Source: Balanoglossus misakiensis (lineage: Eukaryota > Animalia > Hemichordata). Taken from it: DNA of 64,000 nucleotides. The stretch covers positions 7,430,047-7,494,046 of the forward strand of contig CM082591.2 of assembly GCA_040954595.2 (NCBI GenBank). The letters run 5' to 3'. This document shows positions 5,993 to 52,021 of this stretch, piece by piece. The position numbers and the translations under genes are program-made. The notes below the pieces were generated by a model that had not been told where the DNA came from, did not search any database, and saw only the letters and a program-made list of their open reading frames with translations. Each line of letters opens with the position of its first letter. Position 1 is the stretch's first letter.

Positions 5993-8519
5993 ATATCAGA
6001 ACCATCTGCAGCACTGGTTATATTGAAATCATGGGACAAGGAGGCAAAGACCTCCCAACCAACTCAAGCTATAATCAAACATCTCAAAGAAAACACACTC
6101 CAGTCTGAGAACATATCTGAATTGCACTGTACTACCCTTGAAGTTGAAGTGAGTGAAGAACAAAAGAAAGCTGCAGAAAGTGTTTGTGCTAATTTGATCC
6201 CAGCTAAAAGAAACAAGTGGTTGGATCCAAAGAAAGATCTACCTGGAGAACACTGGCTCTTCAACCATTGGGTCTACTTTCCAGGACTGAAGGAACTGAA
6301 AAACATCCAACATGTAGTCGGATATTCTCCACAGACAGAGAATGCAGCTGCAGCAATTCAGGAAAGTCTCTTCCCTGAAGCCAAACTTCACCAACTCAGT
6401 CTTCCTGACCCACCACCTGTGGCAGCATTAATGGTCATGCAAACCTGGCAGACAGAATCAGAAGATCAGACAACAACACCAACTCATCAGCTTGTCACTA
6501 AATTTCGAGAAGAAACCCTGAAGTCAGAGAAAGTTTCTCAATCCTACTGTACTACACTTGATGTTGAAGTGAGTGAAGAACAAAGGAAAGATGCAGAGAA
6601 ATTTGATGTTACTTTGATCACAGCTATGAGAGACGAGAGGATGGATCCTCTTGAAGACCCCCCTGGAGTAAACTGGCTTTTTCACCATGGTACATACTTC
6701 CCAGACTTGAAGGGACTGCAAAACATCAAGCATGTAGTGGGGATCATTTCTAAGACAAAAAATGCTGCAGTGGCAATTCATGAAAGTCTCTTCCCTGAAG
6801 CCAAACTTCACCAACTCTCACTTCCTGAACAACCATCTGCAGCGTTACTTCTACTACCAACCTGGGACACAACCTCAGAAGGGCAGATTACAAAACCAAG
6901 TCATATGCTTGTCAATGAGTTCCGTGAAAAGATAAAGTCTGAGAATGTTTCTGAATTCCTCTGTACTACCCTTCAAGTTGAAGTGAGTGAAGAACAAAAG
7001 AAAGAAGCAAAGGGTGTGAATGTCACTTTGATCCCAGCGAAAAGAAACAAGTGGTTGGATCCTCATGAAGACCCCCCTGGAGTACACTGGTTTGCCAGCC
7101 ACAGTATCCACTACCCAGGACTGAAGGAACTGAAAAACATCCAACATGTAGTCGGATATTCTCCACAGACACACAATGCAGCCAAAGCAATTCATGAAAG
7201 TCTCTTCCCTGAAGCCAAACTTCATCAACTCCATCTTCCACATCCACCTCCTGGGGCACTGTTTGTGTATAATGAATGGAACAAAGAAGATTGTGGCTTG
7301 ACTGGGTTTCACAGAACTCTTGTACAAGATTTCTGTAAAAGGAAAGTCAAAGAAGGAAGAGCTTACTCCACTCTGGTTGGTGTCAAAGTCAGTGATGACC
7401 AGAAGGCAGATGCTACCAAGTGTCGGGTTACATTGATTGCAGCACAACAACCAGAAGAGAAAACCGAACCAGAAGATGATCAGCCAAATTTAAAATGGTT
7501 GACGAAATATCATGAAATCTACTACCATCACCTCAGACAGCTACAAAACATAAAGTATGTTGTTGGTTATGCTCCAAGAACGGGATTCGCTGCTGCAAAT
7601 ATCAGAAAAAAATTGTTTCCTGATGCAGAACTAGTGATGATCAACCATGCCTATGAAGAACGCAACTGTCTGTTGAAACAACCAAAAGGGAAGTTTAGTG
7701 AAATGATGCTGAAGCTGGCCAGTGAAGCTGACATCATATTCTCAATTGGTCCAAGTATGTATGAGCATTTCAAGAATGAATACCGGGCTACCTTTGATGG
7801 CAGGGAACTACACATGATCCCTCATGCAGAGATTTTTCCCAGACCTGCTGAAGTCTTTTTCAGAAAAGACCCAACGTTCCTAGATGGAGTGATTACTCAC
7901 AGCATTCTGACATACGGGCAGATTGATACACAAGAAGCCTTGGACAGATGTGAGACAATAGCAGCTGCTATTGGAAGTGCAGCAAACATGGTGAAAGACT
8001 TTCACAACAAACTTCTGAATTGGTCAATACGGGGAGCAGGTGAGGCTGAACTGAAGCATATTCTACAGCAGATGAACAGCAATCATGTAATGGTATATCC
8101 TCACCCAGATTACGCAGAAAAGACCTTAATGATATCAGTGCATCAATCTCACAGTTGTCTTCCTGTCTCTGTCTACAAGGACTATCCATATAGCGGTTTA
8201 GAATCTATAGCAGTTGGACTACCAACCTATCCTGATGAATATTCCCAGCTTGGAAAGTTAGTCAAGAAATACTTTCCATACCACGCAGACAAATTTGTAG
8301 TGTCACACTCATGTGATAAAATTTCAAAGAAGATAATATGGAGTGTCAAGAACACCAGGTTAGCTTTTGAAGAAGCTAAGGAGCTGAAGAAGGCTCTCAT
8401 GGAGTGTGAAGATGTCAACAAGTGTTACGCCAAATTCACCAGTTTGTTGACACCAGAGGAAATAAGGGAACAGGAAGACAGAGTTGACCCATGTGGCAAG
8501 GATACTGAAAATCCTGCAG
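5993..8519 (+). CDS. Large exon: 3 tandem partial GT N-lobe repeats plus GT-B (GT4-like) glycosyltransferase domain
   Basis: Long ORF; three ~140-aa repeats (CTTL.V.VSEEQ.K.A...DPPG..W...H..YFP.LK.L.NI.HVVG...[12 protein letters not shown]); then [34 protein letters not shown] and [10 protein letters not shown] motifs; acceptor ttcccagcag upstream; donor gcag|gtatgg. Confidence 0.8.
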
Positions 8520-11500
8520 GTATGGGACATTATAAATATTTTGCCATCAACGCTTTGGTTCAGGATACAGTTATGTGGTTTTGTTTCTTGACCTGCAAGA
8601 CTATAGTCAATTTTTAATTCTTGACTATCGTATTAGAGGATTAATTCTCCTCAAAACCAATCATGGCTTCTGCAATGTTTGAAGTTTGAATTATCATTTA
8701 AACATTATATACCGGTACATATACAGATCTTAACTATTGGTCTTGTTAGCTCAGCTGCAAATAAATTATTAATATCAACCAGGTGCTTTGTATTTCAAAA
8801 TGCCATATTCCCTTATACAATGAACGGACTACCACAAGTGGTATGTCCATGCATGCTCATACCAAACAGAAATTAAGACTGATGCAGTGTGTGTGTGGAT
8901 GGATAAATTGTGCATATTAGTTCACTATGCAATGTTGTCTCTTACTCAATTGCTTAATTGTTCGTTCTACCTGTCATCACCCATAGATAATCCCACTGAC
9001 ACAAAAATTGCAATCCACGTCCAACTGGATGAAAATGTCTACCAGGAGTATCTAGCAGAAAATGGGGGCCAGAATGAGGAAAGGCAACAGGCAGCATCTA
9101 CAGCTTGGAACAACTGCCAACAAAAGTTGAACAGAAGAGCAGCTGATGTGGTATCCAATAGTGACGACATCAACAAAGTCAAGAAGGCCTGCACTGACAA
9201 ACTGGGTGAAGTGGACATAACAAATATGGAAACAGGGTCTCTGCAAATCACAGCCAACATGCGTAGACTTTATAATCTCTACAGATTGCGGGGAAGCTGT
9301 CTTGAAGATTCAAGAAGTTTAGCCAAGGCATTAGAACCAATCTTGATGACAGATGAAATGACAGAGGCCAACACAGCTGGAATCCCACTACAGTTGATAG
9401 CTACATATGACCAAGCCAGGTTTGATGAACTGGAACTATTCTTTCTGAACAGTAAGATTTGTTTATCAGAGAATGCAATAAATCTCTCAGACTATTGATC
9501 AAACCAGAAAAAAATTCAATTCAGGACAAAATGTGATGGTTGTTAATAATAGCACTTATTGATTAAATGTTCTCCAAAAGAGACAAACATCACTCTGAAA
9601 TCATAGACAATAGAATTATTAAACAGCAGAACTTGATTTGATAAAGATTTAATGGTTAACATATCTACATTCCTCAACATATTATTGTATTATTATCATT
9701 CAGGAGATGGTGGAGGAATAGGACCAGTGGTATGTGACGACAACGTAGACGATGAATATGTCAATGAGATATTGGCTGAGGTATGCATTGTAATTTTAAC
9801 CCTTAAAGTGGCACACCTGATCAATTGCAAGCCAAGTTGCTCTTGCATAATTGTCTTCAAGAGCAATATCAGCTGCACAGGTCAATACCGGTTGACCCGT
9901 TGAGAATCTGGTGACTGTGAGGTATTTGAGTGATGGGTATTATATCATGTGGTCAAAATTGTATTTCTGGGATGTGCACTTCAACAGTTTCCATGTTATT
10001 TATATATAGTTGTCAAATTATAAAAGTGTTCATTTCTTGCAATTTCAGATTGACAGAACACACCTGACTTTGCAACGGGAGTTAACAGAAAAATATTCTG
10101 ACACTGAACACACTGGCCTGAAACAAAGTGAGTGATATTACCATCATTTCAGTCAATGACAACAAACTTACATTTAGGCTTCATAAATATTCAAAGATTC
10201 AAAAAATACTGGCATAAAAGGTGTTTAGATATATCCAAATTTTCCTTGATGATACACATTTGACTTGGCGTTGCACTTACTTTTTTACCACATGAACAAT
10301 GTAGGAAGGTTTTTGTTGTGGCCATAAAAATTGATATCTCGTTATATTTTGTTAACTTGTAATGATGAGCTGTGATATGAAAGAAACAATTGTCAGCCAA
10401 CATTAACATTCTACTATACATTGCACAGTACCGGTACACCATTTGTTCTTTCTGAATCACCAGTTTGATTTGATGCTTGAAAGATTGATGTGCCAAGACT
10501 AAAACCCTGATTTTGTTTGTATTTTGCAGGTGGGATATTATCCAAGTTGTTGTTCCTTGAGATTGATCCGACACGAGAAATCCAAAAGTCAGCTGACAAA
10601 TATGCACCTCTGATACTCAACAGTGAGCAGTGTAAAAGACAGAAAGGAAGAGAGTTTGACATCATACAACTTACAGTGAAAATGACCGAGAAAGTTCAGC
10701 ATATCCTATCTCACAGACCTCAAGTCTTAGAGTTACTGGGTGTTAGAAGGTACCTAATGACTGACACAGAAAGCTTTGATTTCAGTGACTCAGGTAATTC
10801 ACAAATATGATGCAAACAGCACATTTACTTTACAAGGGAAGTATGTTTGTTGCACTTTGTAAAGAAAAGTAAATGGGCACATACACAGCTATGAACTGTG
10901 CAACATGAATGAAACTTTACAATAGTTATGCAATAATATTATTCTCTACGTGTGTGTGACCGCCAAAGCTTTTCCGATATATTCAAAAGTCAGAGTCGAG
11001 TTTCCATGTACGGGTCTTCGGTTTATTATCGATAAATCGATCGAGTGATCGCTGAATGCGACCGTACGAGACTGTACACAATAGTCAAAAGACTTCGAAA
11101 GACGAGACTGTGAACAGACCTCGATGCGAATGGACCGAGAACGAATAATCTATACCGTAATAGACCTTGTCTCGAATAAATCTAGTTAGACCAAGACCGA
11201 GTAAACCTCGGTACGAATAGACCGTAAAAACTGAAACATAAATACAATTACAAAATGTCAAATCGAAATAATTACATGTACGAAAATCGAGAATGATTTC
11301 AATCGAAACAGATATGTGCAAGCAACACAGTTCGATGTACGTGACTGATGTACATGATGTAGACAACTCGTCAAAGTCTGATTACAATAAAGTTTTCACG
11401 AAAATACAATTCATATCTGTAAGAATACCGAAAGATATATTACCTCGCTGGCGACTTGTAAAGCCTTGTGGTCGGGTAGTTTCGAAATACGAATGAAAAA

Positions 11501-14500
11501 TCGAAGGGTACGAAACGAGAGACGAGGGTGTACTTCACCGTCCCATAGCAAAGTCGAAAACACGAGGTAAAATGTGTAGTGATATGACAATCGTAGATGG
11601 ACTACTTTTAAAACTTTTGGGCGAAATATGGTTTGTCGATGTGTTCACAATGACCTTCAAAGGTACACACAAAGTCACAACATCTTTCTCTGTGAAAATT
11701 AAGTCTACAATATCGAAACTCGTAACAAAAAGGGAACTATTTTTAACGGGTAAGGTTTCAAAGCAGCAAAACGTTCGTGCATATCCCTCATTATTAAAAT
11801 ACGAAATTCCTTTGTTTTTGCATGGCTTCCGCCACACTCCCCCCAAAAATCACATTGATTTTACCTAATCGAAACACTGAAACCAACTACTGAAAACGTC
11901 CAAGCTATTTATCAGCTCTCCCTTGTGTCGCTGAAAACAACTTACCTTAGCATTTCTCTGCTAATGGATTCTCTACCAATAAAACAAGCTTATGAATAGG
12001 CCTTTCTAAAATTGTTGCCTTGTCTACTTTCTTACCTTGTTTCGAGAGGTTGGGATCACCCACAAGGATAGTAACTCTGCGTATCAAGCAATCATCATCA
12101 GACAAAGTGTCTATTACTTTCGCAAGTCTCCACTGATTTCTCACAGTGTCATCTTCCTTAAGAAGTACGATATTTCCAACTTCAAGATTTCTCTTCGTTT
12201 CCTGCCACTTCTGTCTGGCCTGTAGATTCTGTAAGTATTCCTTACGCCATCTTGTCCAGAACTCGTTCGCAAGATACTGAACAGCACGCTATCATTTCCT
12301 GGCATACAGATCTTCTCTGACGAAGTTGCCGGGCGGTGGCAAAATCACATCCGATTTCATAGTCAGCAGCTGATTTGGAGTAAGAGGCATCGGTCCAGTA
12401 GGGTCGTTCAAGTTCTCTGCTGATAAGGGTCGACTATTCACAATCGACATTGCTTCATACATCAGAGTACGAAGAGACGAAGTATTCAATCTGGATCCCA
12501 TCTTTTCCAGAATTCCTGCGAGAACGTTTCTGACCGACCGTATTTGACGTTCCCAAACGCCTCCCATATGACTCGAGGAGGGTGAATTGAAAACGAATTC
12601 ACACTGTCGTTTGGACAACGTATCTTTGATTCTTCCTTCGTCAAGCGCTTGCAGTCCAAGCTGAAGCTCATTCCTGGCTCCTACGAAATTGGATCCCCGA
12701 TCACAACGCAAGTGTCGTACGGGGCCTCTGATAGCGATGAATGTGCGAAGCGAATTCAGAAATGCATCGGTTGACATTTCTTCTACAACCTCTATGTGTA
12801 TGGTTCGAAGCGCTAGGCAAGTGAAAATGACACCATATCGTTCCTTGACGAAAGGTCCAAAGCAGTCCATTCCACAATAGATAAATGGCGGCGATGGCTC
12901 GAGACGATCTTTGGGCAAATCTGCCATTCTCTGTGTGTTGGCTTTGCCTCTGAGTTTCCTACACTGAACACACTTGTGTATATACGAAGCGACTGCTGCG
13001 TTGCAGTTGATGATCCAGAATCCACACGATCTGAGTTTGTTCACTGTAATACCACGTCCCTGGTGGGCCACTTGCTCATGACACCATCTGATAAGCAGTG
13101 TAGTCACGTGACTCTTTCGAGGTAGAATAATAGGGTGCTTGACATAGTCAGGCATGGAGGATCTACTCAGTCTGCCTCCAACTCTGAGTATCTGATGATC
13201 ATCTAGGTATGGGTTCAATGGGTACAGGTGACTGTTACGTTTCACCATCGAGGGTTCACTGTCTTCTGACGTGCGCAATTTCAATGACTCTATTTCTTCT
13301 TTGAAAGCTTCCTGTTGGGCCCATGCCACGATGGCCATGGTAGCTCTCTGTCTTGTTTCTCCGGAAGCGATTTCCTTTCGCTTTCCCTTCCCGGATACAT
13401 AGCGATACAAGGTGGCGAATGCTCCTACAACCTTGTTCCAATCCGAAAATCGCTCTACACGATGTAACATGGATGACGTTGCAGTCGAGGAAGTCATCAA
13501 TGTTCTGGTACTCTTTACCTCGGGATCATCTGCTGACACCTGTGCGTCTACCTGAGTGGAAAGAGGAAGCTCTTTGTCCCACAAAAAGGCAGGACCTCTA
13601 AACCAATTGGACTTCATCAGTCCATCAACGCTGAGTCCACGAGATGCATGATCTGCAGGGTTCTCCTCAGTGTGGACATAGCGCCACTGCTCTGGCTGAG
13701 ATGATTCTTTAATTAAGCAATAACCCCCGCCGCAGGCGGGTATACACGAGATTTTGGTACAATTCGAGACATATAGCACGAGCCGTTAGGCGAGTGCTAT
13801 ATGGAGCGAATTGTACCCAAATCGAGTGTATACCAGACTGAGACGGGGGTTATTGCTATTATATTATACCAACAATTGATTTTGTGGCATATCGGTGTCA
13901 TTTTCTTAACGAATTTTTTTTAGTAAAAGAAGTTACGATCGCGAATCAACATGGTGACGATAATTGTAAACACGAGCGCCCGGGACCGAGCATTAAACAT
14001 GAAGCAGGCGACAAAAAGTGACAAGACAGGCATCGGGCATAGCAAAATACCAAATATTCCCAACAGAGAAGTTCTAGAACAAATCGTCCGTAAATTCAAC
14101 ACCATGTTTATTTATTTGTTTAGTTTAACCCCACGCGACTGTGGTTTGACTGCACATTTCCCTGCTGCATGCTAGTTCAGGGGCCCGTTTTACCACTGCC
14201 AGCAGTGGTAAAACAGTATTTTACCATCGCTCTCGTCCAATCAGAATCGCGGACGGTAGCATGATATAATATAATTCTTTGTATACGATTCGCGACATAT
14301 ATGTGGAAGCGGCGAGCTTCATTTCCTATGTAGCCGAGTACCACTTTCGAGTCTGTCCAGTAGAAGTTCTCCATCACTGGGTAATCCAACTCTTTGTTCA
14401 GTAGATTGCTGACCTGTATAGAAACAACAGCAGCTTGAAGTTCCAATCGAGGAACAGTAATGGGTTTCAAAGGGGCGACTCTAGCCTTTCCCATCACGAG

Positions 14501-17500
14501 CGAACAATGAATATTATCTAGACCGTCGACTAGTCTGATATACGAACACTGACCATAACCTGTCAGGCTGGCATCCGAGAAATGGTGGAGCTCAACTTTC
14601 TTCACTGGTCCGAAATGTTGCGGCTTGAAGCATCTTCTTATCTTCAAGTCGTCTAGCTTGGGCAACTCAGCAAGCCATGATTCCCACCTCGGACGTAAAT
14701 CGTCTGACAAGGGATCATCCCAATTGGTTCCTTTCTTGCACATCTCTTGCAAGATCCGTTTTCCTCGAAGTACGAAAGGTGCGAGAAATCCGACAGGATC
14801 GAAAACAGATGCTACTGCCGAAAGTATTCCACGACGAGAAGGCGAGTGCATCTTGACGATAGGCGAAAAATGAAACGAGTCTGACTCAACGCGCCACTCG
14901 ATTCCAAGTGCTCTTTCGATAGGTAGCTCACTGAACGACAAATCCAAATCCTTGACGTTCTTGGCACGCTCTGAAATAGGGACAGATTCCATTGTAGTTC
15001 TGTCATTCGATATGAACTTGTGCAGACGTAAATTTCCTTCTGCGCAAAGGTTGCGAACATCCTGTATAAGTTGGACAGCCTCTGATGCCGTCTCGAGACT
15101 ATGGAGACCATCATCAACATAGAAATTCTTTGCGACGAAATCTACTGCGCTCTTTCCGTGCTGTGGGTTGTCCTTGGCCACTTGTCGAAGTCCGTAGTTC
15201 GCGCATCCTGGCGAGGACACAGCGCGGAATAGGTGAACGTTCATCCTGTAGGTAACTGGTTCCGAGTCGACATTACCATCTCTCCACCAAAGAAATCGGA
15301 GATAGTTTCTGTCATCTTTCTTTACTCTGAATCTGTGGAACATACGCTCGATGTCACACATGACTGCGATGTTCTCTTTGCGAAAACGACAAAGTACACC
15401 GATGAGGGAATTTATCTGATCCGGTCCCTGCAACAAATGATCGTTGAGGCTCGTTCCCTTGAACCTTGCACTACAATCGAACACGACACGAATCTTGTCT
15501 GGTTTTTTAGGGTGATACACCCCATGGTGTGGAATATACCACATCGATCCATCATGTGTATTCTTGTCGTCGACCAGTTCCGCATCTCCTGACGCGATAA
15601 TGTCTTCCATGAAGTTTCTGTAGTCATTCAGATACTTTGGGTTTGACTTGAAGCGCGTTTTCAAGTACTGAAGTCTCTGCTACGCTATACATCTGTTGTT
15701 TGGGAGCGCTGGTCTATCTTGTCTGAATGGAAGTGGCATTGTATAGAATCCATCTGGTTCTTTCGAAATACCATTTTCCATGATCTTCAAAAATTGAATG
15801 TCGTCTTGAGACATGACGGTTTCTTCAACTCTTTGTTCGTTGAAGTCCGATTCGAGAATTCTCACCACGTCCAAAGGGTTGAGGACTTGCTCCTTGGCTG
15901 AAGTCTTAAAGGCATAACGAACTGCCGACGAATGAGACTCTTCCATACGAAGTCTCTGCTGACTGTCTACACCTGGTTGTAGACCGTCTGGTATCATCTT
16001 TGTAAGTACTCTATGGGTAAAACTGAAGACATCTTCCCTTTCATCTCGATGTGTAAGATGTCCGACGATGCTCCATCCTAAGTCTGTCTCTACTGCGAAT
16101 GGCTGATTTCCACTGCCTGTGACACAGCTACGAGGTGCTAGGGCTTGAGGACAATCATAACCTATCAACAGACCAACTTCACATTTCTGTTGAGGATGAA
16201 TACGAGTAGCGATTTCTCTAAGATGAGGCCACCCATTGGCCATATCACGAGTGGGTATGTGCGATTTTTCCACTGGTATGTAATCAAGCGAATACGTAGT
16301 GGGCAACGGAACTATTTTGTCACAGTCAAACCCGCGAACTCTGAGTTTGCGATACTTGTGACAGGCAACAACCTTGTTGCTCGTTGTCATGGTTGTCATA
16401 CGGAGGTTTGCTGGCTCAGATGCTGTATGTAGCTGTTCAGTGACATGATCCAACACGAAAGTAGTATCTGACTGTGTGTCCAACAGCGCGTACACTAGAA
16501 TCTCTCTGTTCGGTTCTTCGTATCCAGAAATCCACACTGAAACGATCATCGACGAAATAGACTTTCCTCGCGGGCAAGTCACACCATAGCAGTCCGCTTT
16601 CTTCATTTCGGGTGTGGTTTCTTTTCTGTGGTCTCGCACTGGAGACTGAACAGTGCTCATGGTTTTGTTCATGGACGAATGCAGACTGGTGGGATGTTTC
16701 CTACTGCATTTCCTGCAAACGCCACGGGATTTGCAGTTCTTTGAGATGTGCCCCGTGTTTAGACATCTGAAGCAGTAACCGCCCTTTCGAACAAATTCCT
16801 GTCTATCGGACATAGGCGTGGAAGCGAAGCTATAACATTCCTGTATAGCGTGCCCAGTCTTTTTGCAGAAAACACACGACTGGTTTACCGCCCCTGGTTT
16901 TGCTGTGGTCGAGAGCGTACGTGCACCTGGGTTGCGCCTCCTGGTGCTGGTCGGAGTTTTCTGTGGGTCTCTGTCCGTTGGTTACCTCAGCGAGCCGATT
17001 GAGGTCAATGGGTCACATGCAATATCTGCCTCTTCCTCCATGAAGCAGACAAATCTTTTGAATGGGGGGTATGCATTTGTAGTCTTCTTTATTTTTGCTA
17101 CGATCCTGCTCCATCTGTTTACGAGCCAGTCTGGTAACTTCTGGAGCATTTTCCTATTTTCGTGGATATCGTTCAGCACTGCGAGGTCTGGGATATCCTT
17201 CATCGCAATCCGGCATTGTTTCAAGAAGTCTGCGAACTTTCGCAATGCCTTCCCGTCCTTGCCGGAGATTCTCGGCCATCTTTCGATTTTTTCTCTAAAG
17301 GCCTCTGTTACGGCGAAAGAATTACCGTATCGTTCTTCCAGAATCATTCTCGCCTCGTCATATGCCCCTTCACTTCGGAGTAAGAAGCATCCGACGACTG
17401 CTTCCTTAGCAGGACCACCCAAATACTTCTTCAGGTGATGGATTCTTTCGATTGGTGGGACCCCTCGTGATTCAACTAAGGTAATGAAAGACGATATCCA

Positions 17501-26568: not shown

Positions 26569-26571
<3 letters not shown>

Positions 26572-26611
<40 letters not shown>

Positions 26612-31844: not shown

Positions 31845-31848
31845 TTAA

Positions 31849-33010: not shown

Positions 33011-33014
33011 TTTA

Positions 33015-33968
33015 TTGTGGCACTGTGTTATGGTCCTGGACAACGACTGACTATTGGCCAGTGTGCACCATGGGACCAAAATAAAAAGCAAAATTTTGGG
33101 GTCACCTGTGACACCTGCTTATGTGCATACCTAATTCCAAGCTAACCAATAGGGCTAGACATTTGGTTTTTGTTGGACATGGACAAGTATGAGGTCCAAA
33201 TTTTTTGCCCAAGTTTTGGGTGACCTCAGTTGACCTTTTACCTACTTTCCCATATCTTGGCATCCAGAGCAGGTACACCCTTGGTGTTTGGAGGAATGGG
33301 ACCATAATGAAATGCCAAATTCAGGGGTCACCTGTGACACCTGTTTAACTCATTAATTATGTTCCTACCTAATTCCAGCCCAACCAATAGGGCTAGTGTA
33401 GTATCCTGAACACTGTTGACCTTGACCCGAGTTACCCAGAATTCCGTATGTTGTTGTTGCTGCCCTTCCATGGGGGACATCTTGTGTTCACATGAATAAA
33501 GTGTTATTAATCTGTTAACATCACGTGTATCATTGGCCATCTACGTGGACACTATAGCTAGACGTCTGGTTTTTGTTGCACATGGACAAATATGGAATCA
33601 AAAATTGTTGTGCAATGTTGGGTGACCTCAGGTGACCTTTGACCTACTTTCACAAATCTCGGCTTCCACAGCAGGTACAGCCTAGGCATTTGGAGGGATG
33701 GAACACTGAATTCAGTCTTACACTTTACATCATTAATTATGCACATACCTAATTCCAGCCTAACAAATAGGGCTAGAGGAGTGGTTTTTGTTTGACATAG
33801 ACCAGTATAGGGTCAAACATTATTGCCTACAATTTTTGTGACCTCTATGACCTTCTTTCTCATATCTTAGCATCCACAGCAGATACAACATTGAAACTTG
33901 ATGCAATGGATTTGTCATGATTATCTCTATTTGCTTGGGCCCCTTCAATGCTGCTTGCAGCTTTCATT
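33015..33968. repeat. Modular interspersed repeat (shorter version at ~5395-5730)
   Basis: Recurrent blocks GGGGTCACCTGTGACACCTG and CCTAATTCCAG...CCAATAGGGCTAG; ends in GCTTGGGCCCCTTCAATGCTGCTTGCAGCTTT. Confidence 0.5.
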
Positions 33969-34266
33969 AATAACAAATTTGCTTTGACTGAAATACAAAT
34001 GCTTTCAAGTAACAGGTATTTACTGCACAATACTGGTAATCAATCACAGGCACAGCCTAAGATAAAGAAATACAATTGAATTCCTTTCTAGAAATAAACA
34101 AGAGTCGTCAACATACAGTACATGTTGACAAGTAATTCACAGGAAAATAAGAAATCCTCCAGCCCCACCCTGGAAGTAAATTCTGGACAGTCCCTAAGTC
34201 ACAGTCTTATGTTTACATTCAACTATACCTCGGTACAATATATTTCTTCCCAGCAGGAATATAAAT

Positions 34267-39700: not shown

Positions 39701-42700
39701 AATACCGAAAGATATATTACCTCGCTGGCGACTTGTAAAGCCTTGTGGTCGGGTAGTTTCGAAATACGAATGAAAAATCGAAGGGTACGAAACGAGAGAC
39801 GAGGGTGTACTTCACCGTCCCATAGCAAAGTCGAAAACACGAGGTAAAATGTGTAGTGATATGACAATCGTAGATGGACTACTTTTAAAACTTTTGGGCG
39901 AAATATGGTTTGTCGATGTGTTCACAATGACCTTCAAAGGTACACACAAAGTCACAACATCTTTCTCTGTGAAAATTAAGTCTACAATATCGAAACTCGT
40001 AACAGAAAGGGAACTATTTTTAACGGGTAAGGTTTCAAAGCAGCAAAACGTTCGTGCATATCCCTCATTATTAAAATACGAAATTCCTTTGTTTTTGCAT
40101 GGCTTCAGCCACACTCCCCCCAAAAATCACATTGATTTTACCTAATCGAAACACTGAAACCAACTACTGAAAACGTCCAAGCTATTTATCAGCTCTCCCT
40201 TGTGTCGCTGAAAACAACTTACCTTAGCATGTCTCTGCTAATGGATTCTCTACCAATAAAACAAGCTTATGAATAGGCCTTTCTAAAATTGTTGCCTTGT
40301 CTACTTTCTTACCTTGTTTCGAGAGGTTGGGATCACCCACAAGGATAGTAACTCTGCGTATCAAGCAATCATCATCGCGCAAAGTGTCTATTACTTTCGC
40401 AAGTCTCCACTGATTTCTCACAGTGTCATCTTCCTTAAGAAGTACGATATTTTCAACTTCAAGATTTCGCTTCGTTTCCTGCCACTTCTGTCTGGCCTGT
40501 AGATTCTGTAAGTATTCCTTACGCCATCTTGTCCAGAACTCGTTCGCAAGATACTGAACAGCACGCTATCGTTTCCTGGCATACAGATCTTCTCTGACGA
40601 AGTTGCCGGGCGGTGGCAAAATCACATCCGATTTCATAGTCAGCAGCTGATTTGGAGTAAGAGGCATCGGTCCAGTAGGGTCGTTCAAGTTCTCTGCTGA
40701 TAAGGGTCGACTATTCACAATCGCCATTGCTTCATACATCAGAGTACGAAGAGACGAAGTGTTCAATCTGGATCCCATCTTTTCCAGAATTCCTGCGAGA
40801 ACGTTTCTGACCGACCGTATTTGACGTTCCCAAACGCCTCCCATATGACTCGAGGAGGGTGAATTGAAAACGAATTCACACTGTCGTTTGGACAACGTAT
40901 CTTTGATTCTTCCTTCGTCGAGCGCTTGCAGTCCAAGCTGAAGCTCATTCCTGGCTCCTACGAAATTGGATCCCCGATCACAACGCAAGTGTCGTACGGG
41001 GCCTCTGATAGCGATGAATGTGCGAAGCGAATTCAGAAATGCATCGGTTGACATTTCTTCGACAACCTCTATGTGTATGGCTCGAAGCGCTAGGCAAGTG
41101 AAAATGACACCATATCGTTTCACATCACTGCGACGTTCCTTGACGACGAAAGGTCCAAAGCAGTCCATTCCACAATAGATAAATGGCGGCGATGGCTCGA
41201 GACGATCTTTGGGCAAATCTGCCATTCTCTGTGTGTTGGCTTTGCCTCTGAGTTTCCTACACTGAACACACTTGTGTATATACGAAGCGACTGCTGCGTT
41301 GCAGTTGATGATCCAGAATCCACACAATCTGAGTTTGTTCACTGTAATACCACGTCCCTGGTGGGCCACTTGCTCATGACACCATCTGATAAGCAGTGTA
41401 GTCACGTGACTCTTTCGAGGTAGAATAATAGGGTGCTTGACATAGTCAGGCATGGAGGATCTACTCAGTCTGCCTCCAACTCTGAGTATCTGATGATCAT
41501 CTAGGTATGGGTTCAATGGGTACAGGTGACTGTTACGTTTCACCATCGAGGGTTCACTGTCTTCTGACGTGCGCAATTTCAATGACTCTATTTCTTCTTT
41601 GAAAGCTTCCTGTTGGGCCCATGCCACGATGGCCATGGTAGCTCTCTGTCTTGTTTCTCCGGAAACGATTTCCTTTCGCTTTCCCTTCCCGGATACATAG
41701 CGATACAAGGTGGCGAATGCTCCTACAACCTTGTTCCAATCCGAAAATCGCTCTACACGATGTAACATGGATGACGTTGCAGTCGAGGAAGTCATCAATG
41801 TTCTGGTACTCTTTACCTCGGGATCATCTGCTGACACCTGTGCGTCTACCTGAGTGGAAAGAGGAAGCTCTTTGTCCCACAAAAAGGCAGGACCTCTAAA
41901 CCAATTGGATTTCATCAGTCCATCAACGCCGAGTCCACGAGATGCATGATCTGCAGGGTTTTCCTCAGTGTGGACATAGCGCCACTGCTCTGGCTGAGAT
42001 GATTCTTTAATTCTTTGTATACGATTCGCGACATATATGTGGAAGCGGCGAGCTTCATTTCCTATGTAGCCGAGTACCACTTTCGAGTCTGTCCAGTAGA
42101 AGTTCTCCATCAATGGGTAATCCAACTCTTTGTTCAGTAGATTGCTGACCTGTATAGAAACAACAGCAGCTTGAAGTTCCAATCGAGGAACAGTAATGGG
42201 TTTCAAAGGGGCGACTCTAGCCTTTCCCATCACGAGCGAACAATGAATATTATCTAGACTGTCGACTAGTCTGATATACGAACACTGACCATAACCTGTC
42301 AGGCTGGCATCCGAGAAATGGTGAAGCTCAACTTTCTTCACTGGTCCGAAATGTTGCGGCTTGAAGCATCTTCTTATCTTCAAGTCGTCTAGCTTGGGCA
42401 ACTCAGCAAGCCATGATTCCCACCTCGGACGTAAATCGTCTGACAAGGGATCATCCCAATCGGTTCCTTTCTTGCACATCTCTTGCAAGATCCGTTTTCC
42501 TCGAAGTACGAAAGGTGCGAGAAATCCGACAGGATCGAAAACAGATGCTACTGCCGAAAGTATTCCACGACGAGAAGGCGAGTGCATCTTGACGATAGGC
42601 GAAAAATGAAACGAGTCTGACTCAACGCGCCACTCGATTCCAAGTGCTCTTTCGATAGGTAGCTCACTGAACGACAAATCCAAATCCTTGACGTTCTTGG

Positions 42701-45700
42701 CACGCTCTGAAATAGGGACAGATTCCATTGTAGTTCTGTCATTCGATATGAACTTGTGCAGACGTAAATTTCCTTCTGCGCAAAGGTTGCGAACATCCTG
42801 TATAAGTTGGACCGCCTCTGATGCCGTCTCGAGACTATGGAGACCATCATCAACATAGAAATTCTTTGCGACGAAATCTACTGCGCTCTTTCCGTGCTGT
42901 GGGTTGTCCTTGGCCACTTGTCGAAGTCCGTAGTTCGCGCATCCTGGCGAGGACACAGCGCGGAATAGGTGAACGTTCATCCTGTAGGTAACTGGTTCCG
43001 AGTCGACATTACCATCTCTCCACCAAAGAAATCGGAGATAGTTTCTGTCATCTTTCTTTACTCTGAATCTGTGGAACATACGCTCGATGTCACACATGAC
43101 TGCGATGTTCTCTTTGCGAAAACGACAAAGTACACCGATGAGGGAATTTATCTGATCCGGTCCCTGCAACAAATGATCGTTGAGGCTCGTTCCCTTGAAC
43201 CTTGCACTACACGACTACACGACACGAATCTTGTCTGGTTTTTTAGGGTGATACACCCCATGGTGTGGAATATACCACATCGATCCATCATGTGTATTCT
43301 GGTCGTCGACCAGTTCCGCATCTCCTGACGCGATAATGTCTTCCATGAAGTTTCTGTAGTCATTCAGATACTTTGGGTTTGACTTGAAGCGCGTTTTCAA
43401 GTACTGAAGTCTCTGCTACGCTATACATCTGTTGTTTGGGAGCGCTGGTCTATCTTGTCTGAATGGAAGTGGCATTGTATAGAATCCATCTGGTTCTTTC
43501 GAAATACCATTTTCCATGATCTTCAAAAATTGAATGTCGTCTTGAGACATGACGGTTTCTTCAACTCTTTGTTCGTTGAAGTCCGATTCGAGAATTCTCA
43601 CCACGTCCAAAGGGTTGAGGACTTGCTCCTTGGCTGAAGTCTTAAAGGCATAACGAACTGCCGACGAATGAGACTCTTCCATACGAAGTCTCTGCTGACT
43701 GTCTACACCTGGTTGTAGACCGTCTGGTATCACCTTTGTAAGTACTCTATGGGTAAAACTGAAGACATCTTCCCTTTCATCTCGATGTGTAAGATGTCCG
43801 ACGATGCTCCATCCTAAGTCTGTCTCTACTGCGAATGGCTGATTTCCACTGCCTGTGACACAGCTACGAGGTGCTAGGGCTTGAGGACAATCATAACCTA
43901 TCAACAGACCAACTTCACATTTCTGTTGAGGATGAATACGAGTAGCGATTTCTCTAAGATGAGGCCACCCATTGGCCATATCACGAGTGGGTATGTGCGA
44001 TTTTTCCACTGGTATGTAATCAAGCGAATACGTAGTGGGCAACGGAACTATTTTGTCACAGTCAAACCCGCGAACTCTGAGTTTGCGATACTTGTGACAG
44101 GCAACAACCTTGTTGCTCGTTGTCATGGTTGTCATACGGAGGTTTGCTGGCTCAGATGCTGTATGTAGCTGTTCAGTGACATGATCCAACACGAAAGTAG
44201 TATCTGACTGTGTGTCCAACAGCGCGTACACTAGAATCTCTCTGTTCGGTTCTTCGTATCCAGAAATCCACACTGAAACGATCATCGACGAAATAGACTT
44301 TCCTCGCGGGCAAGTCACACCATAGCAGTCCGCTTTCTTCATTTCGGGTGTGGTTTCTTTTCTGTGGTCTCGCACTGGAGACTGAACAGTGCTCATGGTT
44401 TTGTTCATGGACGAATGCAGACTGGTGGGATGTTTCCTACTGCATTTCCTGCAAACGCCACGGGATTTGCAGTTCTTTGAGATGTGCCCCGTGTTTAGAC
44501 ATCTGAAGCAGTAACCGCCCTTTCGAACAAATTCCTGTCTATCGGACATAGGCGTGGAAGCGAAGCTATAACATTCCTGTATAGCGTGCCCAGTCTTTTT
44601 GCAGAAAACACACGACTGGTTTACCGCCCCTGGTTTTGCTGTGGTCGAGAGCGTACGTGCACCTGGGTTGCGCCTCCTGGTGCTGGTCGAGTTTTCTGTG
44701 GGTCTCTGTCCGTTGGTGACCTCAGCGAGCCGATTGAGGTCAATGGGTCACATGCAATATCTGCCTCTTCCTCCATGAAGCAGACAAATCTTTTGAATGG
44801 GGGGTATGCGTTTGTAGTCTTCTTTATTTTTGCTACGATCCTGCTCCATCTGTTTACGAGCCAGTCTGGTAACTTCTTGAGCATTTTCCTATTTTCGTGG
44901 ATATCGTTCAGCACTGCGAGGTCTGGGATATCCTTCATCGCAATCCGGCATTGTTTCAAGAAGTCTGCGAACTTTCGCAATGCCTTCCCGTCCTTGCCGG
45001 AGATTCTCGGCCATCTTTCGATTTTTTCTCTAAAGGCCTCTGTTACGGCGAAAGAATTACCGTATCGTTCTTCCAGAATCATTCTCGCCTCGTCATATGC
45101 CCCTTCACTTCGGAGTAAGAAGCATCCGACGACTGCTTCCTTAGCAGGACCACCCAAATACTTCTTCAGGTGATGGATTCTTTCGATTGGTGGGACCCCT
45201 CGTGATTCAACTTAGGTGATGAAAGACGATATCCAATCTGGATAAGAAAGTGGGTCTCCCATGAACATTGGTGGTTCGGGTGTAGCAAGTCTGCTCAAGG
45301 ACACAGATGTTGCCAAGGCTTCTGTCAATACCTTGAGGTCTTCTCTGTTCTCCGATGGGCGATATTCATTTGCTGTTGCACATAGTGTATAATCTTGTCG
45401 TTTCAGTTGCGACGTCGACGGCTTGGTAGTCGGCGGGGTGACTGGTTCTGATTTTACAGTACGCGCGGGAATATGAGCAGCTGGGGCGACTGGCTGATCG
45501 GTTCGGTCTTCACGACAGGCAACTCGCTTGTCACCGGTGGCAACATAGTCTTCGCTAATGGCAGGTTGTCAAGTAGTTCTTCCTTTTCACAAGCGGCTAT
45601 CTTCGCTTTCTCCACATGCAGTTCTCCTACTAATTTCTGTCTTTCTAACACTCTTCTCTTACGACGTATTTCTGCCTCCAAGTGTTCCAATTCCTCTTCA

Positions 45701-48700
45701 TGTGCAGTCTCTTAATGTTTTGCCTCGATTTCCGCCTGTAGGGCAGCTGCCCTGACAGCAGCGTTTCTCCGTATTGATGACATACTGGAAGAGCTGGATC
45801 GTTTGGATGACCTAGAGCTCGACTTTGTGTGGTGTGAAGGCACGGATCCGAATGAAACTGAGCTATGAGCATCGGCTCGCGCAATCAGTCGCTGTGCATA
45901 ATTGATGACACTATCCGCGCGCAAATTCAAACGATCGACGGCTTTCAAAACATCCTCTAAGGGGGTGTCTGACACGGCGCGTATCTGATCATGAATTTCA
46001 ATCAAAACAGTGCGCTCCATTTCTTTCAAAATAGTATACACGTTTTCCACAGACTCCTTGTCGAATATGTCAGGGTTGTTCACACATGACAACAACCGAT
46101 TGTGAGTACGCCAGAACTGCTTCTCCAAGTCGATTAACTTACCTTTCCTAGCTTTCTCAGTAAGCTTGGTACTCATTCTGACCTGCGTAATGTGTACACA
46201 TTTTCATCCATAATTTCTACATTTGTTTCATGAATCTCTGCCTTTGTTACAATTTGATCTGTTTCATCAGGCTTACCTTGATCATCAGCGGTTGGCACTG
46301 ATTCCCGTGTGTCCTTTTCGGCCATAGTTGAACTTGGGTGAACACAACTAGAGAGCTGAAACAATCACTGTGACTATTCAGTGTAGATACAAATTTGGAA
46401 ATCTAAACCCGAGGGAGTAACTACACAAGCAATTTGATGCCGGGTACTGACAGTGAACAATTTCAAACACTTTGACAAATACAAACTGTGTGAGTTTCAA
46501 CAAAGGAGACTCTTTGTATCGCAAAGGCTGATGCGAATGACACTTATGTGCACAATTTTGGGACATTGAGAAAACTAAATATTCAATTCGCACATGCACA
46601 CAAGCCAAAATTGACAATAATAATGTTCAAAGTCAATGTTCAATACTATGTCCTAATTCTGAAGGAGAGTGTCCAAAATGTTCAATCTGCTGCTTCTGTT
46701 AACAGTCGCTGAACATCACTCTTCTCTGCAGTCTGTGATCTTCATGGGTTGATTCAACAGTAGGGTAATAGGCGAATACTGGCTGAACCATGTAAAGGCG
46801 CCCTCAACGACGAGTCTTCGGCTGAAGCGATGACGTCACACGCAACGATGTAGGACGATAATTTCACCTCCAGATCGAACAGCAATAAAATCGTTGAAAG
46901 ACTTACGTCCCTTCCGAGTTCTGTTTCGAAGGTCCGAGTTCCTACTCGCGCTCGAGTTTTTACTGTGACCGCCATAGCTTTTCCGATATATTCAAAAGTC
47001 AGAGTCGAGTTTCCATGTACGGGTCTTCGGTTTATTATCGATAAATCGATCGAGTGATCGCTGAATGCGACCGTACGAGACTGTACACAATAGTCGAAAG
47101 ACTTCGAAAAACGAGACTGTGAACAGACCTCGATGCAAATGGACCGAGAACGAATAATCTATACCGTAATAGACCTTGTCTCGAATAAATCTAGTTAGAC
47201 CAAGACCGAGTAAACCTCGGTACGAATAGACCGTAAAAACTGAAACATAAATACAAATACAAAATGTCAAATCGAAAGAATTACATATACAGAAAATCGA
47301 GAATGATTTCAATCGAAACAGATATGTGCAAGCAACACAGTTCGATGTATGTGACTGATGTACATGATGTAGACAACTCGATCGTCAAAGTCTGATTACA
47401 ATAAAGTTTTCACGAAAATACAATTCATATCTGTAAGAATACCGAAAGATATATTACCTCGCTGGCGACTTGTAAGCCTTGTGGTCGGGTAGTTTCGAAA
47501 TACGAATGAAAAATCGAAGGGTACGAAACGAGAGACGAGGGTGTACTTCACCGTCCCATAGCAAAGTCGAAAACACGAGGTAAAATGTGTAGTGATATGA
47601 CCATCGTAGATGAACTACTTGTAAAACTTTTGGGCGAAATATGGTTTGTCGATGTGTTCACAATGACCTTCAAAGTTACACATAAAGTCACAACATCTTT
47701 CTCTGTGAAAATTAAAAGTCTACAATATCGAAACTCGTAACAAAAAGGGGACTATTTTTAACGGGTAAGGTTTCAAAGCAGCAAAACGTTCGTGCATATC
47801 CCTCATTATTAAAATACGAAATTCCTTTGTTTTTGCATGGCTTCAGCCACAGTGTGATAATTATGGAACTTAATACATGTCCAAGGTTACTTGATATCAA
47901 TAACATATTTATCTACATTCTTCATTTCAGAGTTTGAAGATGAAATCACACTACATGGAAGACCAATTCATCCCATACCAGCTGAATCTATCAGCTTTCA
48001 AGCAAAAAGCTTACTGCCCTTTGAAGCTAGTGCAGATCAGCTCAAAGAACTAAAACAACTGTTGGATGGGTCCCTGACAGAGAAGTCTAAAATTCAGACT
48101 GAGGCAGTTGAGAATAAGAGAAAGGTAGTTAAAGAAATCACTAAACTGCAGACAGACAAAATGATTCTAGAGAATCAGTTGGAAGAAGCACTTCAGGAAA
48201 AGTCACTCTTAGAAGAGCAGTACAAACAGAAACTTGCAAGTGTTGAGAAAGTAGCCTCAACACAACTTCTGGATGTCATTTCCTTGAAGCAAAGATTGAG
48301 AGAATCAGACCCTAGAAACATCCAAGAATTACAATCTAAACTTGAACAACAAGAACAAACCATAACTGAGCTAAAGTCAAAATTATCCAAAATTCAGGAT
48401 GAGCAATCTGACTCTGAGCTGCAACTGAAAACTGCTAAAACTCTTCAACTGCAAGAAGATGCAAAATTGGAAACTGGACAAGGTGAGATTGATATAAATC
48501 TGCTTCAATTATTCCTGCATCAAGAAACCCTTGGTCAAATAAAATCTTCCAGCTCATATAGATTATAAAAAATTGCAAGTTTTCATTGTTGTAAGGATTA
48601 ACCAAGTACTTAACATTTAATTTAAAATATTTGTAGGCAAACTCACACCATCTGATGTGCCTCTCAAGAAAGATGACACAGGAGACATATCACCAGTAAC

Positions 48701-51700
48701 CATGGCTACAAAAGATGAAGATGAGCCTGTGAAACCAGCATCAATGCAACCTGAGATGGCATCAGAAAAAACAGGAGCAGAGAAAGCCAGACATCCACAA
48801 CCAGAGACAATGGGAACAGAAGACATTGAGGCTGTGGCCAAGATGACGGAAGGAGATGGAACTGAGACTGAGAAAACCAAAGCAAAACAATCTGAGACAA
48901 AAGAAAAAGGTACACCAAACATGTCAATGAGAAGCTTAGAAAGTTGGAACTATATTTACATTCAATCTGATGTTGGCAAGAGCAGTATTCTTGACAGAGA
49001 AAAAAAGCTAATGAGATAAGTTAATATTCAATGTTTGCCAAATGTGTATAGAATGAATTTACAACACTATATTTTCATTGTTTGATCACTTTCTTTTGCA
49101 GAAGAAAAGCCATCAAAAGGTGTCATCAGCAAGACAAGGAGATTTATTGGTGGAAGTAAAGAAACTGCTGGTGATTCAGGGATTACAGGAAGTAAAGAGA
49201 TATCTGAGGATACAAAGGGAGCCAGTGTTTCAGCAGAACCTTCTAAAACAGGTATGTGCATTCTCAGTGTTGGAAAATAAGTTGAATACATGTGTTGATA
49301 ATAAGGGATCAGTTGATTCAAAACTTCAAGTAAAATTAATGTCTAAGTCATCTCTCCACTACAGGAAGTAAAGAGATATCTGAGGATACAAAGGGAGCCA
49401 GTGTTTCAGCAAAACCTTCTAAAACAGGTATGTGCATTTCATCTCAGTGTTGGTAAACAACAGTTGAATACATGTTTTGATAATAAGGGATCAGTTGATT
49501 CAAAACTTCAAGTAAAATTAATGTCTAAGTCATCTCTCCACTACAGGAAGTAAAGAGATATCTGAGGATACAAAGGGAGCCAGTGTTTCAGCAAAACCTT
49601 CTAAAACAGGTATGTGCATTTCATCTCAGTATTGGAAAATAACAGTTGAATACATGTGTTGATAATAAGGGACCAGTTGATTCAAAACTTCAAGTTAAAT
49701 TAATGTCTAAGTCATCTCTCCACTACAGGAAGTAAAGAGATATCTGAGGATACAAAGGGAGCCAGTGTTTCAACAGAATCTTCTAAAACAGGTATGTGCA
49801 TTTCATCTCAGTGTCAGAAAATACCAGTTGAATACATGTGTTGATAATAAGGGACCAGTTGATTCAAAACTTCAAGTAAAATTAATGTCTAAGTCATCTC
49901 TCCACTACAGGAAGTAAAGAGATATCTGAGGATACAAAGGGAGCCAGTGTTTCAGCAAAACCTTCTAAAACAGGTATGTGCATTTCATCTCAATGTTAGA
50001 AAATAACAGTTGAATACATGTGTTGATAATAAGGGATCAGTTTATTCAAAACTTCAAGTAAATGTTGAATCATTGGTTGCCAGAAAGCAGACCATCTCTG
50101 GTTGGCTGGAAAAAGAAACAAAACCTATATCACAACAACATTACTGATAGTACATATAGTTAGAAATATTTTCTTTATATCGCAAAGCAATAGAAATAGT
50201 TTAAGAAATTGATGTTTGTCTGGTTGCCCTGGTTTCCTGGCACTGAAAAACTACAAGTATTAGGTAGGTAGGCAATATTCCTTGAGACATTGTTCAAGAA
50301 CTTTTATGTAAGACCTACTAATTCCAAATTACAAGGCAAAGATTATTCCTGTACTGATCTGTTAAGATGTGTTACCATGACAACATTACCTGTCACTAAC
50401 TCCATTGAGCAGTTGAATAGGCATATTTTTCATTGTTTACAAAGACTCTAAATAAAGTGATAGTTTCAGGTAATATTTCTGTTACTCATCATAAAAAAAA
50501 GAATTAGTAATTGATATTGACATTTTGTCCAGTTTCCATGATTACTTGGAATTGGAAAATGTGTACATATAGAGTACTTTGGTAGAAACATATCATGGCA
50601 ATACTTGAACTCATTAAATTTGTAAAAAAAAGTTTAAAGTTAAATAAAAACACTAACTTTAACACATTGCCAATGTTATACAAAAAACATTGAGGTTCAG
50701 TTGTCATGGTTACCAGTGAATAGTGCTACCATCATACATTTTTTCCTGAAAATAATGGACCAAAGAATTATCCCTGAAACTTAGTTCAGGAATTGTTATG
50801 AAATGTCTACGGAGTCAAAAGTTACAAGAAAAAGATTATTTTTGAACTGATTTCTTCAAATGTGTTACCATGGCAACATCAATGTTAGTATATCTATTGA
50901 ATGGTTAAATAAAAAAGTCTTTCATGTATTTTATAATAACCGGTCAAAAAAGAGACAAAGTAAATTTCCTTCTAGCTATTACAAGAAAAAGAAATAGTTC
51001 AAGAAACTCATGGTTACTCTTGTTGCCATGGTTATTTGTCTTTGTAAACATTGTGTAGAGAAACTGCCCTTTAGTAGTTATGTTGCCACAGCAATGACTC
51101 GTTTCTTTTGTAATATGCTTTCTCTTGAACAATAAAACACTAACTCTAGCATATTCCTAATGCATTGCAATACAGCATGTTTGACCTTTGTTTCACCTAA
51201 CAGGTCACTGGTCAGTGAGGACACTGGATGGCCAAAGTCCAAAGCCAGGGCGAAAGTTTAAAGAACCAAGAGGTATGGTGTTCCATGGTGACAAACTGGT
51301 GGTGTGTGACTCAGGCAATAGGGTTGTACAGATACTGAATCAAGATTACACCTGTGACAAAGTCTTGGGAAGTTTTGATGGTCAGTTTGCAGAGCCATTC
51401 ATGCCACAGGATGTAGCTGTCTCCCATGACAACATCTACTTCATAAGTGATGATGGAAATTCTCAAATTGTTGTTTGTGATCAAAACAATAAAATTCTTA
51501 GAATAATTACTCTACCTGCAGGCGTCGATGTCCGGGGCATCGCTCTACTGAATGGATTTGTTTTGGTCACTGAGGTCGCAGGTCATCGGCTACTCAAGTA
51601 CACCCAAGATGGTCAGTATGTTGCAGAGGTTGGTGGTGGAGGTTTTGGCCAAACACAATTCCGTTCCCCATACTCTGTGGTGGTCAACAGTAAGAATGTC

Positions 51701-52021
51701 ATCATGGTGTCTGACTGTTTCAATCACTGCATCAAGTGTTTTGATGCTGAATTGAAATTCTTGTATCAATTTGGTGTGAAAGGTAAAGGTCCTGGTCAGC
51801 TGAGGTATCCAGACAGCATTGACGTCAATGAAGACGATAATTTGTTTGTGTGTGATTGGTGGAATCATAGGATTGTGAAATGGAGATTTGATGGAGAGTG
51901 GATCTGTCACTTATTTGAAGGTGAGGTGAGCTTCCCTGAGTTCCTTGCAGTCAGCGGTGACAGAATTGCTATTAGAGAGTTGAACAGCGACCAAATCAAA
52001 GTATTCCACAAGCAGACATAA
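34267..52021 (+). CDS. Gene copy 2: GT-repeat / GT4-like / TRADD-N-like / coiled-coil / microexon linker / NHL protein (~1818 aa)
   Basis: Exons 34267-36793, 37261-37725, 37978-38054, 38323-38401, 38804-39067, 47931-48482, 48637-48909, 49102-49251, 49365-49427, 49547-49609, 49729-49791, 49911-49973, 51204-52021; total 5457 nt, in frame from ATG to TAA. Confidence 0.83.
37261..37725 (+). CDS. Exon 2, TRADD-N-like domain (putative), copy 2
   Basis: Paralog of 8987-9451 with conserved splice sites. Confidence 0.6.
39232..47851 (-). mobile_element. BEL/Pao LTR retrotransposon, same insertion, gene copy 2
   Basis: LTRs at 39232-40113 and 46964-47851; GTGTG target duplication (39227-39231, 47852-47856); 868-aa RT-RNaseH-IN ORF at 40566-43172. 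Confidence 0.95.
40224..46330 (-). pseudogene. BEL/Pao gag-pol pseudogene, copy 2
   Basis: Same motifs as copy 1; stops at 43416, 43215 and 40566, plus gag frameshifts. Confidence 0.9.
47931..48482 (+). CDS. Exon 6, coiled coil, copy 2
   Basis: Paralog of 20203-20754. Confidence 0.8.
49189..50062 (+). repeat. 182-bp microexon array, copy 2 (4 microexons)
   Basis: Same unit as 21456-24135. Confidence 0.9.
51204..52021 (+). CDS. Terminal exon, NHL-repeat beta-propeller, copy 2
   Basis: Paralog of 25157-25974; same acceptor and same length. Confidence 0.88.

Follow-up and report, generated by a model that had tools for sequence, protein, structure and literature searches.

What do two long, neighbouring genes of the acorn worm Balanoglossus misakiensis encode, and what might their products do? 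The genes, referred to as copies A and B, lie in a window of 64,000 nt (the whole stretch of DNA analysed, within which all positions are counted) and were modelled from GT-AG splice signals. An original prediction had described two collinear genes reading in frame into proteins of ~2028 and 1818 aa; splicing gave exactly both lengths, with all introns GT-AG and no internal stops in either predicted copy. The domain order proposed there also stands. Both copies encode N-terminal repeats, identified here as three partial GT4 N-lobes, a GT4-conflict domain, a TRADD-N-like domain, a coiled coil, a stalk, and an NHL beta-propeller. The reading favoured here, to which we give an even chance, is that A and B are members of an expanded acorn-worm family of cytosolic immune sensors, in which the GT4 domain is not a canonical transferase and would serve as a scaffold or decoy.

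The domain chain and its acorn-worm relatives

The product of exon 1 matches the GT4-conflict family PF20706 at 136 and 146 bits (E 2e-39 and 2e-42; Pfam cut-off 26). Its AlphaFold model (predicted local distance difference test, pLDDT, 79.5; predicted template-modelling score, pTM, 0.56) is a two-Rossmann GT-B fold, and the Foldseek matches of this model are GT-B enzymes (E 1e-11 to 1e-9). A GT-B fold had been expected at ~aa 420-830; the GT4-conflict domain spans aa 419-~825. In the Atlas, the clusters closest to it consist of cnidarian GT4-conflict proteins (score 0.98). The C-lobe had no match among solved structures. A search of plasmids for GT4 relatives gave no match, and one of prokaryote genomes gave 77 pattern matches with no relative confirmed; a profile search for relatives outside the hemichordates gave 14, Ptychodera proteins plus five NHL-only microbial matches.

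The repeats ahead of this domain are degenerate GT half-lobes. In the predicted model their strand-helix order matches the first half of the GT4 N-lobe, and a profile of that half gives them 119-137 bits. The Gly-rich loop that follows strand 1 has been lost from the extra half-lobes. Of the family's 51 near-full GT4 domains, 31 have one extra half-lobe, four have two, and two (the window genes) have three; 13 have none, several of these being N-terminally truncated, and one gave no score. The half-lobe unit is old, since 37 of 41 extra copies fall in one branch with 95% local support (fast tree, 137 columns, P0016 excluded), and it probably arose a second time in the P0071 group. When A is compared with B, the repeats pair by position over their first 200 bases, while later segments match other repeats (A1 with B3, A2 with B1), confirming the shuffling proposed for this region.

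Exon 2, for which structure work was done on copy B (A is 98% identical), gives a confident model (pLDDT 92.6), and TRADD-N 1f3v ranks first among its Foldseek matches (E 0.03, probability 0.89, template-modelling score 0.42). It adjoins GT4 and has a pattern like that of the DEDD2 clade (small-Ser turn, strand, helix, Ser-Gly, LxTDE), a likeness judged by eye and unscored between 72 aligned members and the echinoderm and coral rows of the alignment of Kaur et al. (PMC8195603). The most fitting label is TRADD-N-like, with moderate support. A domain of this type had been placed at ~aa 890-995; the assignment is moderately supported, and the extent is instead the whole of exon 2, aa 843-997. SEA-type self-cleavage at the turn was rejected, with Gly before Ser in just 24 of 72 members. 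No usable match to exon 2 was found in the Atlas.

At the C-terminus, the last exon matches NHL PF01436 at 66 and 65 bits (E 2e-18 and 4e-18; cut-off 20). This match and six blade motifs in the sequence predict a six-bladed propeller. TRIM71 is its best match among solved structures (E 2e-49), with Thin, TRIM2/3 and Brat nearby. In agreement with the original prediction, no NACHT or NB-ARC NTPase match was found with Pfam in the window genes, and none to RING or B-box in exons 1, 2, 5, 6, 7 and the last; exons 3, 4, 8 and the 21-aa exons, outside the Pfam scan, have no Cys/His pattern. The predicted lack of a transmembrane segment likewise held. The highest 19-residue Kyte-Doolittle means, 1.93 (A) and 1.56 (B), both fall within an NHL blade, and a membrane receptor was rejected, the hydropathy scan showing no transmembrane helix.

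A search with the GT4 domain returned 35 clusters, all of Ptychodera flava RefSeq proteins and mostly 45-53% identical, dispersed over many chromosome-sized contigs; in 15 of the 35, GT4-conflict and NHL belong to the same chain. Searching the whole library with exon 2 found 51 proteins, and the 20 looked up comprised 14 from Ptychodera, three from Glandiceps talaboti, and three fragments. Every relative with a species name is an acorn worm. (Left out of these counts were P0074 and P0085-P0089, which are not family, and the isoform duplicates P0015 and P0077-P0079.) GT4, the exon-2 domain and NHL occur in this order in 19 relatives, including Glandiceps (21 with A and B, of the 51 near-full GT4 domains), and the presence of all three core domains on one chain supports the predicted linkage of exon 1 to NHL in the window genes. 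In a quick GT4 tree, A and B nest among Ptychodera proteins, beside members with two half-lobes. Other relatives have a C-terminal TPR or NB-ARC+TPR, and one an N-terminal DED. The NB-ARC+TPR, TPR, N-terminal DED or reverse-transcriptase fusions of Ptychodera P0055, P0008, P0010 and P0029 are evidence of module swapping that is probably ongoing in the family.

A variable propeller face and an altered GT4 site

The NHL domains of A and B differ at 37 of 272 amino acid positions, and 21 of the 37 differences fall in 36 face positions (p 2e-12), defined around the Pro and Asp-x-x-Asn of each blade and chosen after the A/B differences had been seen. Among 25 relatives, entropy is 2.44 bits at face positions versus 1.36 elsewhere. 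Between A and B, the proportion of nonsynonymous differences (pN) at the face is 0.365, versus a synonymous proportion (pS) of 0.042, and pN in the rest of the domain is 0.037. With the 36 most variable sites picked from relatives only, A/B pN was 0.343 versus 0.041 elsewhere (pS at these codons, resting on three changes, was 0.128). The face entropy, the high face pN and this recheck together point to diversifying selection on the predicted binding face and not on the scaffold. All three kinds of diversification originally proposed, in the N-terminal repeats, the number of short exons and the NHL loops, are supported.

In zebrafish LIN41, residues that contact RNA include Cys563, Arg564, Arg581, Ser582, Arg611, Lys628, Asp629, Tyr658 and Trp660, among others (PMC5908797). 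Read from TRIM71 alignments, these LIN41/TRIM71 contact residues coincide with the variable motif positions of the NHL domain here. The Arg/Lys cage of TRIM71 type is not conserved, the equivalent positions being variable.

The altered site in the GT4 domain is the EX7E motif. According to passages of PMC8760489, with similar ones in bioRxiv 2025.10.15.682550, its first Glu serves the donor sugar and its second the ribose, along with an Arg/Lys pair. The register was set here by alignment to glycogen synthase, a weak match without gaps (E 0.016), and that of the Arg site by motif position and not by superposition. The first Glu is present in one of the 51 family domains (Asp in two), at a site that holds 14 residue types, while the second is present in all 51. 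The Arg site, part of the pair that in active enzymes holds the pyrophosphate, has Arg in two and Gln or Glu in 41, with Lys five places after it in 11. The Gly-rich N-lobe loop and the following His are conserved in the family, and the GT4 region is under purifying selection between A and B (pN/pS 0.33-0.5). The general GT4 models PF00534/PF13692 have no match in the window proteins, though every member of the three closest cnidarian clusters carries them. The glycosyltransferase effector of the original prediction is doubtful with the first Glu in one of 51: the domain is likely a nucleotide-binding but non-canonical or inactive transferase.

Duplication, stalk and mobile DNA

A unit of ~27 kb occurs twice in the window, with 85-99% identity by segment in a self-comparison (Table 1). 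Divergence between A and B is a mosaic, 1% in the centre, where 14 kb are ~99% identical, and 8-16% toward the ends; exons 3-8 differ by ~1%. A junction block, X, is arranged with the genes as X-A-X-B-X, as unequal crossing-over would give, and this order speaks more for a genuine tandem duplication than for two alleles. The copies appear to be recent duplicates. Copy A does not start where it had been thought to: its codon at 5993 is ATA, where B and the relatives have Met. Its first in-frame ATG is codon 147 (6431), preceded by three out-of-frame ATGs opening 25, 1 and 29 codons. With ATA at the start and a late in-frame ATG, copy A as modelled has no start codon; it may be impaired, may lack one repeat, or may take its start from a further exon outside the model, and copy B would be the intact gene of the pair.

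Table 1. Predicted features of the two gene copies and their surroundings (window coordinates; CpG o/e, observed-to-expected CpG ratio; LTR, long terminal repeat).
Feature	Position	Strand	Details
Gene copy A	5993..25974	+	23 predicted exons, 2028 codons, first codon ATA not ATG
A, three ~140-aa partial GT4 N-lobe copies, aa 3-418	5999..7246	+	strands 1-5
A, GT4-conflict domain, aa 419-~825	7247..8467	+	Gln643 at Arg site, Lys729 at first-Glu site, Glu737 kept
A, exon 2, TRADD-N-like ferredoxin-fold domain, aa 843-997	8987..9451	+	
A, exons 3-5, linker and 88-aa module of no known family	9704-9780, 10049-10127, 10530-10793	+	
A, BEL/Pao LTR retrotransposon in intron 5	10955..20123	-	antisense to gene, TG..CA ends, 5-bp target duplication
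A, exon 6, predicted coiled coil	20203..20754	+	weak coiled-coil Pfam matches and composition
A, exons 7-8, low-complexity stalk	20909..21518	+	
A, 14 predicted 63-nt phase-1 exons	21632..24057	+	21 aa each, in 182-bp exon+intron tandem array
A, last exon, NHL beta-propeller	25157..25974	+	
Gene copy B	34267..52021	+	13 predicted exons, 1818 codons, begins ATG
B, three partial GT4 N-lobe copies	34273..35520	+	
B, GT4-conflict domain (GT-B fold)	35521..36741	+	
B, exon 2, TRADD-N-like domain	37261..37725	+	
B, exons 3-5	37978-38054, 38323-38401, 38804-39067	+	
B, same BEL/Pao insertion in intron 5	39232..47851	-	antisense to gene
B, exons 6-8, coiled coil and stalk	47931..49251	+	
B, four predicted 63-nt exons	49365..49973	+	
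B, last exon, NHL beta-propeller	51204..52021	+	
Junction block	27011..27740; also 1-578 and 53877-56372		three occurrences, flanking and separating A and B
CpG-rich promoter-like zone upstream of A	4000..5500		CpG o/e 0.93
CpG-rich promoter-like zone upstream of B	31800..33100		CpG o/e 1.01

The gene bodies are CpG-poor (o/e 0.02-0.36). Gene-body methylation in invertebrates is the background for linking such bodies to germline transcription, which they and the CpG-rich zones upstream suggest here. A 60-bp tandem repeat at 1086-1470 (6.4 copies, with an internal 15-bp period), within a short inverted segment, has no counterpart upstream of copy B.

The 88-aa module of exon 5 has no Pfam match, is identical in A and B, and is present in only seven of 35 relatives examined; it may be a mobile, unnamed domain between the TRADD-N-like domain and the coiled coil. 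Farther downstream, the stalk includes a 182-bp tandem array of 14.8 units in A and 4.9 in B. The original prediction had called it satellite-like. A tandem array it is, but satellite DNA was rejected, as every unit contains a 63-nt GT-AG exon in frame and length variation is only intronic, evidence that is weak and rests on few independent events. The label "microexon" does not fit either, the usual limits for microexons being up to 27-51 nt. In A, a three-unit higher-order repeat (182, 182, 181) with matching amino acid variants occurs three times at 21996-23511, a sign of unequal crossing-over, although assembly could also affect copy number. The relatives have low-complexity repeat stalks of their own at the same place, and stalk segments of 33 and 118 aa differ in two of six of their isoform pairs, which supports a stalk that is variably spliced.

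The retrotransposon said to split the gene was confirmed as a BEL/Pao LTR element with Peptidase_A17 and DUF1759 (Pfam). Its own two LTRs differ by 1.7-1.9%, more than the same-side LTRs of A and B (0.7-1.1%), so the insertion predates the last shared history of the copies. In the B element an 882-codon pol frame is intact, and in the A element it is split into separate frames; both elements are CpG-undepleted (o/e about 1.05), in contrast to the host gene. Elsewhere, two neighbouring open frames at 54564-55283, inserted in the third junction block, have no Pfam support at cut-off, and we take them to resemble a broken hAT-type transposase. A 267-codon frame at 62312-63115, within a 310-bp inverted repeat pair (61502-61811 / 63391-63730) and without a Pfam match, presumably resembles what follows the reverse transcriptase in LINE-like elements.

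Known systems, rival readings and significance

The coarse architecture of GT4, TRADD-N and propeller was already known. In cnidarians, cephalochordates and hemichordates, TRADD-N comes after GT4 in proteins described by Kaur et al. 2021 (PMC8195603), who proposed that beta-propellers sense invaders and set off a TRADD-N switch in a sensor-switch-effector logic. Their lists include one amphioxus protein with GT4, TRADD-N and a beta-propeller of unstated type. Like the GT4+TRADD-N proteins of their DEDD2 clade, the window genes have GT4-conflict directly before the TRADD-N-like domain, a variable repeat sensor at the C-terminus, lineage-specific expansion in a sessile marine animal, and a retrotransposon association. 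They differ in the NHL head, long coiled coil, repeat stalk and half-lobes, as well as in the family's lost first Glu and site-level selection. In the portions of that paper compared, "NHL" is absent from the main text and occurs in the supplements only inside sequences, the canonical EX7E motif word has no match in the supplements, and the Ptychodera family of dozens is not among 30 of 149 GT4+TRADD-N rows (2 of 8 TRADD-N+propeller rows were also covered). The architecture had been thought undescribed; this holds for the NHL version, no report of which, or of the Ptychodera expansion, was found in the open-access literature. A selected NHL face, a degenerate GT motif and mobile half-lobes were likewise not found described before.

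Other known systems share parts of the chain. The coral glycosyltransferase-NLR or GT4-STAND proteins are also modular and cytosolic with an N-terminal GT4-conflict domain, and relative P0055 resembles them in its NB-ARC+TPR; the window genes have no NACHT/NB-ARC match and would depend on the coiled coil to oligomerise. TRIM-NHL proteins (TRIM71/LIN-41, TRIM2/3, Brat, Thin) have a coiled coil and then a C-terminal NHL, but the RING, B-box and filamin domains have no match in the window genes, and the RNA-contact positions conserved in TRIM-NHL proteins are hypervariable in the window family. The metabolic GT4 enzymes BshA, MshA and sucrose-phosphate synthase share the GT-B fold and the second EX7E Glu (template-modelling score over the target 0.67-0.74 for BshA and MshA), at 10-12% identity; the first Glu and the Arg/Lys pair are not conserved in the window family.

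Under the favoured reading, the NHL propeller would be the sensor, binding a variable foreign ligand on its fast-changing face in the cytosol. Binding would cluster or reorient coiled-coil oligomers, with the stalk setting reach through exon number and splicing, and the TRADD-N-like domain would flip as a switch, as in the model of Kaur et al. (PMC8195603). The GT4 module, its second Glu invariant, may still bind nucleotide and would serve as a scaffold or decoy, aided by the extra half-lobes. Copy A would be translationally impaired or start at codon 147. The immune-type sensor chain of the original prediction is supported in part, its immune role being inferred and its GT4 effector doubtful.

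Several results weigh against this reading. The relatives are RefSeq gene predictions. In a wide structural search (VIA) with exon 2, TRADD-N reached Z 6.0 (root-mean-square deviation 4.1, 109 aligned), tied with a protocadherin-15 domain (6c10, 6.1) and an IS200 transposase (2ec2, 6.0), and no TRADD-type Pfam family matched exon 2 or its relatives. Over the whole NHL exon, pN is 0.081 and pS 0.042, a ratio of ~2 that is not significant (p 0.11), and mean entropy (1.48) is close to that of GT4 (1.44) and exon 2 (1.53). The last intron is also 8% diverged between A and B, so part of the NHL difference probably came by exchange with a more distant paralogue. In the GT4 domain, an acidic residue (Asp/Glu) lies one place after the lost first Glu in 48 of 51, a basic residue is found at R+9 in 26 of 51, and the second Glu is invariant, one Glu being expendable in some GT4 enzymes (passages of PMC8760489). 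The EX7E counts cover domains of the acorn-worm family only.

These GT4 residues are the substance of the main rival, in which the sensor chain is the same and GT4 is a working glycosyltransferase effector, as in Kaur et al., with the shifted acidic residue replacing the first Glu. The acidic residue, together with purifying selection between the copies, suggests that the domain keeps some function, and the intact GT-B fold with its conserved loop and His would suit catalysis; a first-Glu site that varies freely, an Arg site turned to Gln/Glu, and the missed general GT4 models tell against it, and an active transferase seems possible but considerably less probable. A distinctly unlikely alternative makes the proteins TRIM-NHL-like RNA-binding regulators of transposon or endogenous transcripts, diversifying to track RNAs. 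Their closest solved NHL structures and the match between variable and RNA-contact positions would fit, as would five to six Lys/Arg and nine to ten aromatic residues among the 36 face positions, but the face also holds six to seven acidic residues and no fixed basic cage, RING and B-box have no match, and the heads are exchangeable with TPR or NB-ARC+TPR.

Incompatibility loci, too, typically show modular shuffling and high paralogue polymorphism concentrated on a single face, and the family has both. Intracellular self/non-self or gamete-compatibility recognition in place of pathogen sensing is nonetheless the least probable explanation, given the lack of a signal peptide or membrane helix, the dispersed expansion in Ptychodera and the immune/apoptotic domain partners. 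A last concern touches the pair and leaves the family-level reading unaffected: A and B could be two alleles placed adjacent by the assembler, and/or copy A a young pseudogene. The nearly identical centre with one LTR insertion common to both, and the missing ATG of A, are what this would predict; the threefold junction block, the mosaic of divergence, and 2028 codons of A without a stop or frameshift make it unlikely.

A bolder form of the favoured reading, which we regard as rather improbable, is a large, NTPase-free family of cytosolic pattern receptors with an NHL diversified in antibody-like fashion at the RNA-contact positions of TRIM71, an inherited bacterial-type GT4 effector turned nucleotide-binding pseudo-enzyme, and duplicated, shuffled half-lobes as integrated decoys for pathogen inhibitors; if true, it would be without precedent both as an NHL-based diversified receptor repertoire and as an integrated-decoy design in an animal GT4 system. 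Hemichordates adjoin the chordate root, and few studies have addressed the immune repertoire inside their cells. For GT4/TRADD-N defence proteins, so far based on domain lists, the family is a concrete, testable case, offering a sensor face with site-level selection evidence, defined residues for catalysis, and natural variants with 0-3 half-lobes and NHL, TPR or NB-ARC heads. Should its GT4 domain prove to be a pseudo-enzyme, the "glycosylating effector" model in the literature would need revision for the acorn-worm branch.

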